Program-made: the position numbers and the translations under genes
NCBI GenBank assembly: GCA_043228905.1
Contig: JBHGNT010000010.1
Span: forward strand, 11,966,001-12,030,000
From: Azolla caroliniana
Lineage: Eukaryota > Plantae > Polypodiophyta
DNA: 64,000 bases
Reading direction: 5' to 3'
Notes under the pieces: generated by a model
What the model saw: only the letters and a program-made list of their open reading frames with translations
Databases searched by the model: none
What the model was told of the DNA's origin: nothing
Part shown: piece after piece, positions 2,713-57,940 of the stretch
Layout of the letters: the number at the start of each line of letters is the position of its first letter
How positions within the stretch are numbered: position 1 is the stretch's first letter

Positions 2713-3079
2713 TTTAATAGATTGAACCTACAACCTCACATCAACAAGATGGCATGCTCAACCATTTTGATATGAGCATGTATTTATATATAATATTTCA
2801 GTATTATATAGTCTAGCATATAATACATTTCAGAATCAGAATATTCTAGTTGTTAGTATATTCTAGAAATATTGTACGGTATATTCTAGATAGGTATATT
2901 CTAGAGATATTTCTTGAGTATATTCTAGAGATATTTAATGATCTCAGAACTTATATAAATACTTGTAAACTCCTTGGTCCCGTTCAAGGGATTCAACACC
3001 AGTCATTGACACATCAATCTAGTATTCTCATTTCATTCCATCTTGTCTCCTTCTTCATCTCTCTCTGACTAGCATAACA
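2713..3079 (+). mobile_element. 5'-truncated LTR of the TCTAGA-rich (J/K chromovirus-type) family
   Basis: TATTCTAGA arrays, TATA at ~2952, TTCAACACCAGTC motif and CT-rich 3' end shared with LTR 48884-49318. Ends ...CATAACA. Confidence 0.7.
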
Positions 3080-6252: not shown

Positions 6253-6425
6253 TAGCTATACATGTATATCACTAAAATGTCATACATCATGCAAGAGAAG
6301 GAACTTCTTGCTTCATATCAATATTTTGTCACTATCATATACACTCTCTAGGTTATAACGACTAGCATCACAACATGACCACTTTTGAGTTTTGATTGTC
6401 ATTTAGTTTTGTTAGAATCATTTAA

Positions 6426-6611
6426 TCTCCGCACCCCAAGGGCTGAAAATAGAGAGTGAATTTGTATTTGATTCACCACTGGTCATTTAGTTTTGTTAGA
6501 TGAGAGAAATGACCAGTGGTGAATCAAATACAAATTCACTCTATATTTTCAGCCCTTGGGGTGCGGAGAGTGAATTTGTATTTGATTCACCACTGGTCAT
6601 TTCTCTCATCT
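6426..6611. repeat. 63-bp inverted repeat plus a third copy (inverted triplication)
   Basis: Arm 6426-6488 is the reverse complement of 6507-6569 with 1 mismatch and an 18-nt loop. 6567-6611 is the reverse complement of ~6498-6542. Confidence 0.9.
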
Positions 6612-45530: not shown

Positions 45531-45999
45531 TGTCAAGACTGAGAGAGAGAGAGAGAGAGAAAGAGATAGAGAGATAATTGAAAGAGAATTATTATATTGA
45601 AGCGTAAAATGGATTACAAAGAATAGGCTACAAAATGGTGTTGAACCAATTTAGGTTTGGGATGGGTAGTAAATCCCTATTTATAAGTAATAGAGAACAC
45701 TCTAGAATATTCTAGGTTATCCTAGAATGTAGAGTAATCTAGAAGATCTCTAGAGTATTCTAGAAGGTTCTAGTGGTATAGAACACTCTAGAATATTCTA
45801 GGTCATTCTAGAATATAGAGTAATATAGAATATTCCTATGATATTAGATTTCATATTCTAGAGACTATACATATAAGAATATTAATACAATGGTTAAGGA
45901 TTTGACATGTGTACAACAAGGTCGTGGGTTCAAATCCTTTCGAGTCATAATGTGAGTGTCATGATCCTTTCAATGCATGATGTGACTGTTATCATGACA
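45531..45999 (-). mobile_element. Solo LTR K inserted in J pol
   Basis: TG...CA termini, TSD AGGGC at 45526-45530 and 46000-46004, TCTAGA arrays like the J LTR. Confidence 0.9.
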
Positions 46000-48900
46000 A
46001 GGGCTAGTTTATAACCTTTCGCCCACGGAGCTAGAGGTTCTTCAGGAATATATCGATGAGAACTTGGCAAATGGGTTTGTCCAACATTCAAGATTTCCTG
46101 CCGGTGCACCCATATTTTTCGTTAAGAAGAAAGATTTTTCACTTCGTCTGGTCGTGGATTATCGGGGATTGAATAAAGTAACTATTCGAAACCGATATGC
46201 TCTACCATTTATTTCACGCCTTCTGGAACGCCTCAACGGAGCTAAATATTTCACAAAGTTAGATCTTCGAGGTGCATACAACCTTGTTCAAATTCGTCAT
46301 GGGGATGAATGGAAGATTGCTTTCTGTACTCATTATGGCCATTTTGAGTATACAGTGATGCCATTTGGTCTCATGAATGCACCAACAGTTTTCCAACAAA
46401 TGGCGAATGACATTTTTCGAGATTTCCTCGATATTTTCATCATAGTTTACCTGGATGATATCTTGATCTACTCAAAAACTCAAGAGGAGCATGATATACA
46501 TGTTCGACAAGTTTTGCAACAGTTGCGTGAATATGGTCTCTATGCAAAATTGGAGAAGTGTAGTTTCGACCAGCGTCAAGTGGAATTTTTGGGGTACATA
46601 ATCTCTTCACATGGCATCTCTATGGATCCAGCAAAGGTTCAAACAATTTTGGATTGGCAAACACCACAATCTGTGCAAGATGTACAATTTTTTTGGGGTT
46701 CGCAAACTTTTATCACAAGTTCATCAAAGATTGTTCAAAGATCGTATTGCCCTTCACTCAACTAACACAAAAGAATCAACCATTTGTGTGAAGGACAAAT
46801 GCAAACTCTACATTTGAAGGTTTAAAGAAAGCATTTTTATCTGCACCAATTTTGATGCATGTTGATCCACTTATGCGCGTTATACTCGAAGCTAATGCAT
46901 CCGACTTTGCACTAGGAAGCGTACTATCCCAGATTGGCAATGATGGTCAACTGCACCCTGTGGCTTTTCACTCACGGAAATTTGAAGTTGCAAAAATCAA
47001 TTATGAGATCCACGACAAAGAGCTTCTTGCCATTGTGGATTCTTTACAACAATGACGTCATTTTTTGGAGGATTCTTCTCAATAGATCGTTGTCTACAAT
47101 GATCACAAAAATCTAACGTACTTCCAAAGTGCTGGAGTCTTGAGTCGTCAACAAGCTCGTTGGGTGCAGTTCTTAACTCGTTTTGATTTCATAATTCTAT
47201 ATTCCCCTGGGATGCAACAAGGAAAAGCAGATGTTTTATCTCGGTGTTCGTATATGGAGCTTCAACCAGGAGAGTCCGTATTTGAAAGTCAGAAGCAAAT
47301 CCTCTTGGGTCCTGACCATCTATGACTAATGGCATTTCATGCTATAGACACACACGAAGATTCAAGTCTTCTAGACTCCATTCGGGGGCATATTGAGATT
47401 CATGAATTCGCCCAAGACATTCTGAACCATATTATCCCAAATCGTGCTTCTTGTTCTCAATCTCAAAATCCTCATCAAGACTACAACTAGTTCAGTTGGC
47501 ATGATGGTTTACTTTTTCGACAAAATCTCTTGTATGTGTCTGACAATCCTTCTCGATTCCAAGTCTTGCAACAATGTCATGACACACGAATGGTTGGACA
47601 TTTCGGCATCCACAAGACTTTAACGTTAACTTCTCGAAGGTATTGATGGCCATGACTTCGCCATTTTGTTACGCATTATGTTTGTAGTTGTGATACATGT
47701 TGCCAATCCAAAAAACCTTGAGATCATCCATATGGCTTATTACAACCAATGCCTATTCCTAACAGTCCATGGAAATCTATTTCATTGGACTTCATTACGG
47801 ATCTACCACCTTCCAAGGGTTTTGATTCTATTCTCACGATAGTACATCGTTTTACGAAGATGGCACATTTTCTTCCTTGCACGAAGGCCATTATGAGCCA
47901 AGAGACAATCGAGCTACTCATGCGAGAGGTGTTTCGGCATCATGGTCTTCCCGATGATATTATCAGTGATTGGGGTTCCCAGTACATATCAAAATTTTGG
48001 CGGCACATGTTCAAACTCTTACATACTTCTTGTAAACTCTCTTCTAGCTACCATCCAGAAACTAACGGGCAGAGTGAGCGCACCAACCAAATAGTAGAGC
48101 AATATCTTCGTTGTTTTGTCAACTATCAACAAGATGATTGGCCTGATCTATTACATTTGGCGGAATTTGCTAACAACAACTCAGAACATTCTTCTACTAG
48201 GTACTCCCCATTTTTTGCGAACATTGGGTACCATCCTTATTGGACTATGTTTTAACATCCTGAACTCCCAACAAACCCGATTGTTGAAGATCAGCTCACC
48301 CCGACTCCAAGAAATTCAGGATATCCTTTTGCACCATTTATGTGATGCTCAAAACACTCAAAGGAAGGTTGTCGACCGTCATCGATGTGATTCATCAACT
48401 ACATTTCAAGTGGGAGATCAAGTATGGCTCTTACAATGTCACATTAAAACAACCCGACCTTGCTCCAAATTGGATTATCAATGTTTGGCCCATATGTGAT
48501 ATCTAGTAAGATCAATGATGTGGCATTTCGCCTTGATCTTCCTCATATGCGTCTTCACCCAGTCTTCCATGTTTCACTGTTGGAGCCCTACACAACCAGC
48601 TCTATTCCAGGTCATCTTACATCTCCCCCACCTCCAATCGAAGTTTCAGATGACTCTGAATATGAAGTTGTTGCCATTCTCGACTCCAAGATTGTTCACA
48701 AGAAATTGTATTATTTGGTTGACTGGTTAGGTTATACACCTAATGATCGAACATGGGAACCTCTCGAGAATTTTGCTAATGCCTCCGAAATGGTTGTTGC
48801 ATTTCACAACAAACATCCCCATAAACCAAGTTTGAAATCTTGTCTTCTGACTCGTGGAACTCATCGTCGAAAACGGGGGATAATGTCATGAAGACATACA

Positions 48901-49009
48901 TTTTGGACTTACAACCCATGGCGTCTTGGTCTATATGTTAGACCGTTAACCATTATAATAACATATATAATGTCTAGTTATAATAAATATATTATTAGTT
49001 ATTACAAGA

Positions 49010-49120
49010 TATTTAGAGTATTCTAGAACATTCTAGACTATTCCATGATTATATTAAATATCATAAATATCTAAAATATTCTAGAACATTCTAGAATACT
49101 CCATAAGGACCTATAAATAG
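49010..49120 (+). promoter_or_regulatory. Heat-shock-element array plus TATA box in the J LTR
   Basis: TTCTAGAACATTC at 49021 and TTCTAGAACATTCTAGAA at 49079-49096 (alternating nGAAn/nTTCn units), CTATAAATAG at 49111. Confidence 0.65.
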
Positions 49121-49228
49121 GTGTCTATTCATTCATGACAACTCGTTCGGTTCAACACCAGTCTTTAACCTTTAGCCTACTCTTTGTGACCTTGTTTTCT
49201 CATAATATAATCTCATTTCCATTTCTTG

Positions 49229-49266
<38 letters not shown>

Positions 49267-49339
49267 CGTGCGCGCGCACACGCACACGCACACGCACCCG
49301 CGCGCGCGAGTCATGACATTTACGCACAGGCACACGGAT

Positions 49340-52422: not shown

Positions 52423-54419
52423 AATGGCTCAGAATAATGACCCGATGCCCTCCGCTCAAGCGGAAAGACCTCAAGGAAATCCTCCTGGGACAATGTCCAT
52501 TGAGGCGTATATTTTACAAGTACAACATTTCCTTAGTTCAACCGCGCAGCAGTTGACCGAATTTCGGCAATCTCAAAGTGCTCTCGAGGCACGAGTCATT
52601 AGTCTCCAAAATGAGATTAATAGACCTGATGAGCGTCAGGGTGAACCATCATTTGTCGTAAAGCCATTTACGGGAGATAAAAAGGAAAGAACCGAAGAAG
52701 CAATCTGCACGTGGCTGGGCCGATGGGAGTCTCATTTTGAGCTCTATCCCACGCCAGATAGTACGAAGATTGCATATGTCGGCCGAGAACTAGGGGGTAA
52801 GGCCGCCGCTTGGTGGCGTGGGCTCCGAACTTTGGGGAGATAGCCCAAGACCTGGACAGACTTTGTCACAGTTTTCAAGGGTCAATTTCTACAACCTCCC
52901 TCTCGAACCGAGGCAGCACAAGCTTTAATGAACCTCTCTAGCAGGAAGTTTTCCTCGCTAGAAGACTATGTCCACCATGCTAGAACCCAAATCCAAAAAT
53001 CGGGTCTAGAAGGGGACAATTGGTTAATAGCTTGTTTTGTCAATGGCATCCCCAATTCAGACTATCACTGGATAGTGCACGATAAGGATCCAAAATCCTT
53101 CGAAGAGGCCGTTGAGATAGTTCTTCGCTATCAACGCACTTCGAAGAAGGACCATAACAAACCCAACGAAGCGCCCGGGACTAAGCAGTCGCAATTCGTT
53201 GGGAAACGCAAGACACCCAACGAATTCATGGATCGCGATTATAAGCGACAACATCCTTTTTGCGTATTCTGCAAAAAGAAGGGTCATACAAAAGAGCAAT
53301 GTCGTAAGCTCCAACGAAAAGAGCACGACGCCAAACCTAAAGCTACAGACCATAAAGGTCAGATTCCTAATGTCCTTCAGGTCTATACACATCATTTGAG
53401 TAATTGTCAATGTTCTTTCCCTCATTATGTATTGGGTCCCAATGATTTACTACGTGCAAACGGGTATATCAATGGATCTCCCGTACAATTTTTATTTGAT
53501 TCGGGAAGCTCACACAATTTTGTGAATGATCGTTTGGTACAGATATGGGGAATCCAACCCACCGTAAGTGATCACACCTACACGGTGCACTTGGCTGATG
53601 GAAGAGTACAACACATCAACGGGGCGATTCATTCTTTAGGAATTTCTATTGATACCTATATAGAGGAAGTAGACTTCCATGTAATGAATCTTAGTACCAC
53701 CGATGTAATACTGGGTTATCCCTGGTTTTATAATAAAAGCTCTTCTTTATTTATTGATTGGGTTCGCCATTCCATTTCTTTTGTACTCAACGATTGTACG
53801 CATTTTATTCAATGTGTAACAAAACAATCCCTCTCGATTGTTTCCTCGTGTCCATCAATATCCGAGTTGTCTTGTTCTACGTTATTTTATTGTGTACTTG
53901 ATCCGGACATTCACGTTTACAATATCGATAATGTCTCGGGTCAATTAACATATTTTGAACAAAAACAACTTGATGAAATCGTAAACGATTTTCGTGATGT
54001 TTTTCCTAGTGAACTACCCGATGGTTTACCTCCTAAACGTAATATAGACCATCGTATAGATATTGTACCTGGCATTGCACCCATTAGTATACCTCCGTAT
54101 CGCCTAAGTCGATCTGAAGAGGATGAGGTAGCTAAGCAACTTAAGGACTATTTACGAATGGGTTATATACGTTATAGTAAATCTCCATGGGGTGCACCAG
54201 TTCTCTTGGTTAAAAAGAAAGAGGGCACATGGCGTATGTGTATTAATTACCGACGCTTGAATAAAGTGACGATCAAGAATTCGTACCCATTGCCCCGGGC
54301 TGACGATCTAATTGACCGTCTCCAGGGAGCTCGGTATTTTACGAAACTTGATCTCCGTACTGGCTACCATCAAATACGAATAAGTGAGGACGATGTTCCT
54401 AAAACAGCATTTCGTACGC
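52423..54419 (+). pseudogene. G gag, protease and RT N-terminal half, one in-frame TAG at 52841
   Basis: Same frame across ORFs 52334 and 52928. [63 protein letters not shown]. Confidence 0.9.
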
Positions 54420-54518
54420 TGTCGTAGTGTATTTCGTACACTACGTGAAAAAGTAAAAATAATATAAACGATTTAATTACATATAAATAAATAAAATAAG
54501 AATATCAAAATATTTATC

Positions 54519-54594
54519 ACGTGCATAGGGCAGGATTTGAACCCTGTACCTCCACGTAGCTAAACCTCAACTTTACCATTATGCTACCTTATCT
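54519..54594 (-). promoter_or_regulatory. tRNA-like Pol III type-2 promoter module (A box and B box) in the H LTR; second copy 57279-57354
   Basis: Minus strand TAGCATAATGG (A box) ... CAGGGTTCAAATCCTG (B box within a T-arm stem) at tRNA-like spacing. No clear anticodon arm. Confidence 0.65.
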
Positions 54595-55214
54595 TTAGTG
54601 TTCTACAAATAGATTTAATAACTATAAGTGCTTTATTTGCACCTACCTTTATTAAAAGGTAAATCGTGCATTTTTAGAGTGTGTGAATATTTTTATAGAA
54701 AAAACGCAAGCAACTAAAAAGTGACTCGTGCACATCTAGCGTGCATGAGCACTATATTTAGCAAATAAAAGCAAGGATTAGAAAAGCATCACATGCATAT
54801 TTAGTGTGCATGAACATATTAGAAAAAAAGCATGTAGCTATGCTTAGTCTCTCCCATCACTACATAAGGATGGGGAGCACAATGTAATAGGTGTGTGTGA
54901 AAAATATTTGGGAAATTGGATATATTTCCTAAAACACCAACAATCAATAAAATATACTCGTGGGATTCACGAGTTTAAGATAATCTATCTCTATCAATCT
55001 AAATACATATTTTTACATAAATATTAATCAATAAAATACATTATACTTGTGGGATTCACAAGTTTCTAATAATCTACTCATAATTATAATAGTCTCAAAT
55101 TCTTCCTCCTCCTAGTCCAAAACCCCGGTGGTTCCCACCCGACTCACGCAACGATCCGGAGCCGAAAGGCACGACACAGTTGGTGAACCCGACGTGAAGG
55201 CGGGTGGCAAGGAG

Positions 55215-57227
55215 ATGGAGAATCAACAAGAGGCAATGAGCATAACGATGATGATGATGTTCGAGCGGATGCTACAAGAACAACGAGTGATGTCGGAGAT
55301 CACGGCGGTAGTAAAGCGGCTCGTACAACGAAACGGACAATTCAACGGAAACGATCTGTCACGCTATCTACATGACTACAAGGCGGAGATGATACGATGT
55401 GGGATACCGGAAGGATTGCAAGTGACATCCTTCAATCGGGTGGCCACGGATGAACTACAAGAGAGAATCCACAAGATACAACAACCAAACTCGACATGGG
55501 GGTCATTCGAAGAAGCTTTACGAGAGGCATATGATTACAAGAGATCGAAGGGAAAAGATCGGCGAGAATTCGACGAATGGGTGGCATCGGAGAAGACCCA
55601 CCGAAGTGCAACACAAGCATTCCTAGAGTTCGAGCATCGTTTTGCTCGACTCTCGGAGCGGGAACAACGATTGGTGGGAGAGGATAAAGTCCTAATGTTC
55701 GTAAGATCGATTGATCGGAAAGAAAGGAAGGACATCGGGATTGAACTCGAAGACGATGATGGTGCGAATGGTCTTACTGAGGATTGGGCCAAAGTCGAAA
55801 GGGTATGCCGGAGACATGATGAGAGGAAGATGAGAATCTTGTCAACGACATGGCCGATGAAGGATGGTCGATTGAAGACAAACGATGGAGCCGATATGAA
55901 GGCCGAAATACAACATGATGGTGCGACGGAAGAGGGTGTAAAACAAGCTACCCTCTTGTCTTGCGAAAGAACAACGACAAAGGATAAGGCCGATAACCCA
56001 AGTGTAGAAGAAGATTTCGGAATACAAGTGTCCGAAACATCGGGTGAAAAAGGGGTAAGCATAATTGATGTTTGCATAATTGATGCAGTGAAAGAGAGCA
56101 AGGAGGACTTGATTGAGGAGGTCGCCACGAAACATGACATCGAATCGAAGGTGGCTATGGACGAATCAATGGCGGATGGCCATATCGAGACTTCCCCACC
56201 ACTGATTCCAGAGACTCCGGCGGTTGCGTTCGAAAGGCAACGTGAGACCGAAGAGACGGAAGGTGGCGGAGAGAAAACAAAGGTCGAAGTCGATGCATAC
56301 GACGGAGAGATAGCCGAGAATATGGCTATGGGTGAAACAACGGAGGATGATAATACCGAGGATTCCTACCCACTAATTCTAGAGACTTCGGCGGTTGTGT
56401 CCGAGAACCAACGTGAGACCGGAGAGATGGGAGGTGGCAGCAAGAAAGGTAAAGTCGGAAGCCGGTTTGGATGGAAGGTGATCCGGACGGGATTCCGATC
56501 CGAAAGAAAGCCGAACCGAAAGGAAGAGAATTCCAAACGAAAGCCGAACCGGGCGAATGAGGATTCGGCCGAAAGACGACCCGAAAGAAAGCCGACCCGA
56601 AAAGGGGTCGAATCGGTCAAAACCGATCGACCGAGTCTGACTTGGCCGAACGCGAATATGGATGGAAGCCGACCTAGCCGAAAGCCAATCGGACGAGATC
56701 GATCCGGAAAGAAGCTAATCCGACTCAACCGAAGGTTGGACCGGTCGAGGCAGGTGAAAACGAGGAAAAGAAAGCCAACCGAAACCGAAACCGATAAATC
56801 GAAACCGGGCCGGAAGGAGACCGACTCAATCGAAACTGAACAACCGATTCCGATTCGGCCGAATACGAATCCGATCGGAAGCCGATCAAACCGAAAGTTG
56901 ATCGGACGAGAGCGATCCGGAAAAAAGTCAAGGTTGATGAAGACAAGAAAGAGGCCAGTAAAAGACACTACCACGAATGACAAGGGCCAAGAATATGACG
57001 AGAGAGAACAAAGAATATGGTGGATCGGATGGCGACAATGGTTCGGGTGGAAAGAATGGGTCTACTCAAAATGGAGAGACAAAGTTGACATAGCGGGACA
57101 AACGGAGGATGAAGGGGAGACAACGAGCATCGGCAACTTCGGCACATACCGGAGGATGTGCGGGTTCGGAGGGGGCGAGTGTCGTAGTGTATTTCGTACA
57201 CTACGTGAAAAAGTAAAAATAATATAA
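55215..57227 (+). CDS. H ORF (670 aa): gag-like N-terminus, acidic repeats, basic repeats, Trp-rich C-terminus
   Basis: Uninterrupted frame from an ATG just after the PBS to a stop inside the 3' LTR. No protease, RT or integrase motifs. Confidence 0.7.
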   Translation: MENQQEAMSITMMMMFERMLQEQRVMSEITAVVKRLVQRNGQFNGNDLSRYLHDYKAEMIRCGIPEGLQVTSFNRVATDELQERIHKIQQPNSTWGSFEEALREAYDYKRSKGKDRREFDEWVASEKTHRSATQAFLEFEHRFARLSEREQRLVGEDKVLMFVRSIDRKERKDIGIELEDDDGANGLTEDWAKVERVCRRHDERKMRILSTTWPMKDGRLKTNDGADMKAEIQHDGATEEGVKQATLLSCERTTTKDKADNPSVEEDFGIQVSETSGEKGVSIIDVCIIDAVKESKEDLIEEVATKHDIESKVAMDESMADGHIETSPPLIPETPAVAFERQRETEETEGGGEKTKVEVDAYDGEIAENMAMGETTEDDNTEDSYPLILETSAVVSENQRETGEMGGGSKKGKVGSRFGWKVIRTGFRSERKPNRKEENSKRKPNRANEDSAERRPERKPTRKGVESVKTDRPSLTWPNANMDGSRPSRKPIGRDRSGKKLIRLNRRLDRSRQVKTRKRKPTETETDKSKPGRKETDSIETEQPIPIRPNTNPIGSRSNRKLIGRERSGKKSRLMKTRKRPVKDTTTNDKGQEYDEREQRIWWIGWRQWFGWKEWVYSKWRDKVDIAGQTEDEGETTSIGNFGTYRRMCGFGGGECRSVFRTLREKVKII

Positions 57228-57940
57228 ACGATTTAATTACATATAAATAAATAAAATAAGAATATCAAAATATTTATCACGTGCATAGGGCAAGATTTGA
57301 ACCCTGTACCTCCACGTAGCTAAACCTCAACTTTACCATTATGCTACCTTATCTTTAGTGTTCTACAAATAGATTTAATAACTATAAGTGCTTTATTTGC
57401 ACCTACCTTTATTAAAAGGTAAATCGTGCATTTTTAGAGTGTGTGAATATTTTTATAGAAAAAACGCAAGCAACTAAAAAGTGACTCGTGCACATCTAGC
57501 GTGCATGAGCACTATATTTAGCAAATAAAAGCAAGGATTAGAAAAGCATCACATGCATATTTAGTGTGCATGAACATATTAGAAAAAAAGCATGTAGCTA
57601 TGCTTAGTCTCTCCCATCACTACATAAGGATGGGGAGCACAATGTAATAGGTGTGTGTGAAAAATATTTGGGAAATTGGATATATTTCCTAAAACACCAA
57701 CAATCAATAAAATATACTCGTGGGATTCACGAGTTTAAGATAATCTATCTCTATCAATCTAAATACATATTTTTACATAAATATTAATCAATAAAATACA
57801 TTATACTTGTGGGATTCACAAGTTTCTAATAATCTACTCATAATTATAATAGTCTCAAATTCTTCCTCCTCCTAGTCCAAAACCCCGGTGGTTCCCACCC
57901 GACTCACGCAACGATCCGGAGCCGAAAGGCACGACAACGC

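Follow-up and report, generated by a model that had tools for sequence, protein, structure and literature searches.

Antisense tRNA-type A/B-box modules in the outer U3 of LTRs from two Gypsy lineages in Azolla caroliniana

Why would the long terminal repeats (LTRs) of retroelements carry the internal promoter boxes of a tRNA gene, and carry them antisense? The stretch analyzed here, 64,000 nucleotides of Azolla caroliniana DNA (the window), holds LTR retroelements nested in one another. A first-pass annotation had noted antisense A and B boxes near the 5' end of four of its LTRs, termed H, J, K and L. Judging from the sequences, we conclude that the module is real and family-wide in two lineages, and that it is a tRNA-type A/B pair with boxes and spacing rather than a functional tRNA gene.

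Anatomy of the elements and their modules

H spans positions 54420-57936 (3.5 kb) and is nested in the RT of another chromovirus. With a single ORF and no pol, the element is non-autonomous (Table 1). The ORF has no entry in the Atlas, a weak search with its first 260 residues found no longer homolog, and the pattern of LTR ends and primer-binding site (PBS) found no match in viral contigs. Its roughly 650 codons fall into repetitive halves, acidic then basic, and related pieces occur in loci L049, L054 and L063. The PBS resembles what we take to be tRNA-Trp. The target duplication ACGC fits the 4-bp NCGN rule of the Phygy clade, which is described as Physcomitrella-specific and has a Trp PBS in 81% (PMC6317226). 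A relative of H, a 70%-identical solo LTR in locus L031 that is preceded by ACGT and followed by ACAT, also bears the module. Thousands of contig pieces (unstranded contigs, from runs labeled with several organisms) cover the H LTR including the module. What are presumably a G-box/ABRE core directly beyond the B box (54518-54523) and RY-like CATGCA motifs (54742-54812) suggest ABA-type control of H.

Table 1. Coordinates of the elements, modules and associated features in the window
Feature	Position	Strand	Remarks
Module of truncated L-type LTR piece	2718..2772	-	A box 2762-2772, B box 2718-2728
TATA and R 5' end common to J, K and L	J 49112..49160; K 45636-45685; L 2954-3001	J +; K minus	
K solo LTR, Tcn1-type	45531..45999	-	5-bp TSD AGGGC; inserted in pol of J
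K module	45883..45937	+	A box 45883-45893, B box 45927-45937; antisense to K
J 3' LTR of chromodomain Gypsy, Tcn1-type	48884..49318	+	
J module	48913..48960	-	A box 48950-48960; B box interrupted by 9-nt deletion after T55
H target duplication	54416-54419 and 57937-57940		4 bp, ACGC
H 5' LTR, Phygy-like	54420..55176	+	757 nt, TG...CA ends, 1 difference from 3' LTR
First T4 run beyond H B box	54507..54510	-	22 nt on; possible Pol III stop
tRNA-derived module in H 5' U3	54522..54593	-	Span of Rfam tRNA model; faces LTR outer end
B box of H	54533..54543	-	
A box of H	54576..54586	-	
TATA-like box of H	54861..54867	+	Putative Pol II promoter; about 275 nt inward of A box
PBS of H	55181..55197	+	Presumably tRNA-Trp-like
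H ORF	55217..57179	+	Single; no Pfam match
H 3' LTR	57180..57936	+	
H 3' LTR module	57282-57353	-	B box 57293-57303 with C62T

The antisense boxes of H lie where the first-pass annotation had placed them and at tRNA spacing, with a gap of 32 nt and no mismatch to either textbook box (0+0). The T-stem that it had described around the B box (CAGG...CCTG) did not hold up, being one base off the tRNA register; cmscan requires an insertion. Nor did a tRNA search recover a gene: ARAGORN finds 0 tRNAs, and at the H module the Rfam tRNA model, matched from end to end (1-71), scores 14.2 bits against a gathering threshold of 29. K gave no match to this model, and Rfam lists no tRNA over the whole window and 10 loci. 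Cloverleaf pairing is found in 46% of cells, compared with 40-51% in slid controls; it exceeds the shuffle control, which relatedness alone can cause. Folding z-scores of all six modules range from +0.1 to -1.8, none clearly better than shuffles. The cloverleaf is lost, and constraint would act on the DNA boxes rather than on RNA shape. A hairpin in J resembling a CAT anticodon was discarded, as it is shifted by 3 nt from the tRNA register and is not preserved from copy to copy.

The K module is arranged as had been claimed, with an A/B gap of 33 nt and antisense to its minus-strand solo LTR. For the LTR at 2713-3079, the antisense boxes were found (3 mismatches), while the sequence itself appears to be a truncated LTR piece lacking the 5' end of its relative L026. 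Compared with its family, J has lost 9 nt between two TT steps of the B box, which had previously been regarded as degenerate. J codes for gag, RT, integrase and a chromodomain (PF00385, E 1.9e-12), and its RT has no relative among viral contigs. J, K and L have a common TATA, R and self-priming anatomy, and the TATA-plus-R motif matches three times in the window versus 0 times in 100 shuffles. The bases following the 5' LTR, the predicted PBS, complement each family's own R start and covary with it across three Tcn1-type families (loci L029, L031, L032, L033, L044, L045, L055 and L068). This covariation is comparative support for Tf1-like priming, and elements of the J/K/L type are predicted to self-prime. 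Chromodomain, 5-bp TSD and self-priming match the Tcn1 clade, for which self-priming has been predicted before (Neumann 2019, PMC6317226). The four occurrences, which had been ascribed to unrelated families, are thus reduced to two lineages, since J, K and L belong to one self-priming clade; what stands is that two distant Gypsy lineages carry a family-wide antisense module close to the 5' end of their LTRs.

Read inward from their outer end, the LTRs show B box, A box (both outward-facing), AT-rich gap, TATA and R. J and K have repeats between the AT-rich gap and TATA that we take to be heat-shock-element-like. These TTCnnGAAnnTTC arrays lie at 49021-49096 in the J LTR and at 45758-45770 in the K LTR, and the two LTRs hold 4 of the 5 heat-shock-element-like 3-mers of the window. 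Elsewhere in the window, positions 6420-6575 form a long, near-perfect, MITE-like hairpin with 69-nt arms (96%), to which miRNA models match below threshold only.

Occurrence and conservation

Textbook A and B strings were searched on both strands of the window (128 kb) and in 20 block shuffles. Allowing at most one mismatch per box, only the two H LTRs and K were found, with 0.55 pairs expected; two of these pairs have a perfect B box versus 0.0 expected. The module is absent from five other LTR-like stretches of the window.

A metagenome scan extended the sample. Its pattern, the TATA/R motif plus an upstream TTCTAG with the module excluded, returned 50 loci, which by R start divided into 38 of the same clade and 12 unrelated ones. 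Six of the 38 were set aside, five with a cut or interrupted U3 and one without a match to the window LTRs. As controls served 37 loci with the same TATA/R motif, including the pattern matches in viral (19) and prokaryote (6) collections, which lack the module. Of 32 Tcn1-type LTRs, 25 contain an A/B pair in antisense with 3 or fewer mismatches (17 of them with 2 or fewer) and 2 contain a pair on the sense strand, compared with 0 of 37 controls. The 25 LTRs are not 25 independent events, as copies share ancestry, and the loci are mostly low-coverage short-read contigs from one assembly set, some of which share flanks and may be chimeric. By eye, the remaining seven LTRs comprise four with decayed modules, two damaged by deletion, and L032 (about 584-840), a Tcn1-type LTR with an apparently intact 5' end and a U3 of tandem repeats but no module. 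Deletions within the module are seen in J, L054 and L063. The module of L041, one of the 25, may derive from a nested repeat. A weak match in L049 was dropped because it falls within flanking internal sequence that belongs to a different element.

The A-B spacing is 32-34 nt in most copies, including those of J, K, M and H, and the U3 just inward is rich in indels. Position 10 is T in most Tcn1-type A boxes. The modules are not private SINE insertions, as almost every copy of a family has its module at the same position; inspection of the LTR alignments by eye revealed no tail, no TSD and no duplication flanking the module. In locus L047 (about 1195-1395), a J-type LTR is interrupted in its (TC)n tract by an insertion with short inverted ends. 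This insertion holds two inward-facing tRNA-like heads with an A-B gap of 32 each, one of them 84% like the L041 module over 50 nt, and it is possibly a free donor or MITE-like element.

Between families, the boxes are more similar than their surroundings. In the comparison of H with four Tcn1-type families, for which G18-G19 and the B box served in part as anchors, identity is 0.94 at the fixed A and B positions and 0.27 in the spacer middle and flanks. A MAFFT alignment of windows cut around the boxes gave the same register, and on it the comparisons of H with J and K yielded p=0.002-0.006 and that of J with K p=0.06. G46-T47, outside the classic boxes, is 0.98 identical between H and the Tcn1-type families and is as conserved as the boxes, for which TFIIIC binding offers no obvious account. 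The inter-box sequences had been described as different; the spacers of J and K turned out to be homologous, as are those of M (L031, L046), with identities of 0.45-0.49. Fixed B positions are 0.93 identical between J and M (spacer 0.49) and 0.87 between J and K (spacer 0.45). Since the J, K and M spacers are homologous and the spacer of H, like its flanks, matches the Tcn1-type families no better than chance (0.27), we count two lineages. Between H and its L031 relative, the 72-nt module shows 3 transversions and no gap, compared with 37 transversions in 308 flanking columns (p=0.03).

Within families, the picture is less clear. Among 19 rows of the J family, shared variants occur in 5 of 6 degenerate box columns versus 2 of 12 fixed ones (p=0.013), and these box variants mostly give allowed boxes (A, C or T at 59; A or G at 57); G52, G53 and T55 do not vary (17 of 17). 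Compared with neighboring columns, of which 28 of 67 have shared variants, the 2 of 12 fixed columns are not significantly depleted (p=0.09), and mean variation is 0.068 versus 0.082 in mid-U3, i.e. about equal. In the H family, whose majority B box carries a G at position 57 (54538), variation of at least 4% is seen at 29 of 123 sites. One of 10 invariant tRNA positions reaches this level (p=0.27), and none of 10 varies at 40% or more (p=0.21). An excess of box conservation over neighboring U3 is therefore found between families and is not significant within them, and the same holds for purifying selection on the box positions, which is apparent only between families.

The first-pass annotation had also pointed to the difference between 54533 and 57293 as the only one between the two H LTRs. 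It is indeed the sole difference and falls in the B box, at position 62. As a sign of selection we reject it, because it is a common family polymorphism, accounting for 63%, 30% and 35% of contig depth in three runs. At 23-25% of contig depth in three runs, the C56T variant, expected to break the B box, exceeds the variation of neighboring CpG sites, which stands at 1-15%. It probably reflects CpG decay, which would suggest that many H-family copies are methylated there. A depth peak over the B-box half in run X20 was discounted, since contig depth cannot rank parts.

Possible functions of the module

Because box letters and spacing are kept without stems, recognition at the level of DNA is indicated, and a TFIIIC site, which covers the promoter and barrier readings together, is probably the core of the module. 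We favor, with a probability of roughly 0.4, that the outer-U3 module of the Tcn1-type and Phygy-like LTRs acts as a chromatin barrier through this site. The barrier is preferred because these elements nest in other silenced elements; both H and K are nested in other retroelements. RLG1 chromoviruses sit in heterochromatic islands (PMC7466625), and barriers formed by tRNA genes and SINEs are known (PMC2040200, PMC8136502). A tRNA or tRNA-derived repeat would have been captured into U3 at least twice and, owing to this location, would be copied to both LTRs in each cycle. TFIIIC, perhaps joined by TFIIIB at the AT-rich gap inward of the boxes, could hold a nucleosome-poor patch. In elements inserted into silenced elements, this patch would slow heterochromatin entering from the 5' LTR flank and protect the Pol II promoter, which lies 100-280 nt deeper in the LTR, and any Pol III transcript would be a short or outward-running by-product. 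Somewhat more tentatively, Gypsy elements nesting in heterochromatin may have convergently captured tRNA promoters as portable outward TFIIIC barriers, which would make their insertions self-insulating.

As the within-family conservation tests are not significant, the module could instead be a neutral relic, which we consider rather unlikely: tRNA-derived repeat heads would have been captured into U3 once per lineage and carried along, and the likeness of the boxes would merely reflect that every tRNA head has them. Potential donors are at hand, as shown by the free two-headed L047 element, one head of which resembles the L041 module; moreover, one LTR (L032) lacks the module and several copies have deletions in it. 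However, passive carriage fits poorly with the same orientation and the same outer-U3 position in two distant lineages. It also fits poorly with fixed B positions that remain about 0.9 identical where the J/K/M spacers are down to about 0.5, with the steady spacing amid an indel-rich inward U3, and with the concentration of variants at degenerate positions. Less likely again is a productive Pol III gene that runs outward and either makes a short antisense RNA or, by its transcription, raises or lowers the activity of the nearby Pol II promoter, an effect that tRNA genes can have on nearby Ty promoters. The A/B geometry is complete, and a T4 run follows the B box directly in 7 of 11 K- and M-family modules, after 22 nt in H, and first after 40 nt, beside the polypurine tract, in five J-family 3' LTRs. 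Still, no T4 lies within the J-family LTRs, terminators are not conserved across families, and a variant at 54509 breaks the first T4 of H in most of the depth of two of three runs; the A boxes are weak and no RNA structure is conserved.

The conservation of G46-T47 would be explained if the module acted as RNA, with the 3' U3 of the genomic RNA being complementary to the D and T loops of a tRNA and capturing the host tRNA. Antisense orientation and U3 position would then be as in Ty3 (PMC5371799), and H presumably uses a tRNA primer. We nevertheless regard such pairing as improbable: the Tcn1-type families are predicted self-primers and would thus need no tRNA primer, position 59 switches among A, C and T, and G52, G53 and T55 are invariant (17 of 17) although wobble would permit change. 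We retain the TFIIIC barrier as the preferred reading. A built-in TFIIIC site would be a concrete and mutable answer to the question of how chromoviruses are transcribed after insertion into silenced chromatin. Should the module have no barrier role, LTR families of high copy number would nonetheless spread many A/B-box sites genome-wide, which bears on TFIIIC titration, genome organization and false tRNA calls. If neutral, the module would still be an LTR feature without a match in the searched literature.

Comparison with known systems

In that literature we did not find an antisense tRNA module in U3, although subscription papers, Repbase entries or supplements could note one; the available text of PMC2864245, PMC6317226, PMC7466625, PMC7175516 and PMC3286476 does not describe it. 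The closest relatives of the module hosts are found in Physcomitrium (Neumann 2019; Novikova 2010), where Tcn1 chromoviruses have a chromodomain, a 5-bp TSD and self-priming as in J, K and L, and Phygy elements have a 4-bp NCGN TSD as in H and a Trp PBS, which the PBS of H presumably resembles. The accessible parts of both papers make no mention of a tRNA-like LTR module in these elements.

By its sequence features, the antisense U3 module would be a variant of Pol III-promoter-bearing LTRs. Cassandra and Ajax TRIMs likewise carry an internal Pol III promoter in their LTRs, but theirs is derived from 5S (A, IE and C boxes), whereas the one described here is of tRNA type; Cassandra transcription begins in the 5S part and yields element RNA (PMC10886601). 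More similar is Helenus (TRIMp3; Kojima 2024, PMC10886601), which includes a Selaginella family and in which part of the LTR is tRNA-derived, with boxes A and B conserved and no working tRNA. Helenus elements, however, are non-autonomous and 311-1263 bp long, while the module hosts here are coding elements of at least 3.5 kb: H has 3.5 kb and a long ORF, and J codes for proteins. Moreover, the tRNA-like part of Helenus is in sense orientation and presumed to drive the element, in contrast to the module described here, which lies antisense in U3, ahead of a Pol II TATA; in the Helenus supplement (PMC10886601), one B-box string gave 21 sense and 0 antisense matches. According to the same source, autonomous partners should not share such LTR sequence, and 'not a few' Repbase LTRs hold tRNA-like pieces, which it mentions without description, TRIMs alone being analyzed.

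Ty3 has a bipartite primer-binding site, with a U3 likewise complementary to the T and D arms of a tRNA (PMC5371799). That site serves tRNA priming, whereas the Tcn1-type elements studied here are predicted self-primers. The mode of action that we propose is known from barriers made of tRNA genes, SINEs and TFIIIC sites, such as those of fission yeast cen1 and the mouse B2 SINE, where A and B boxes form a boundary at the level of DNA. The cen1 and B2 barriers are features of the host genome or of a SINE, whereas the module described here would be a barrier that an LTR element carries for itself.
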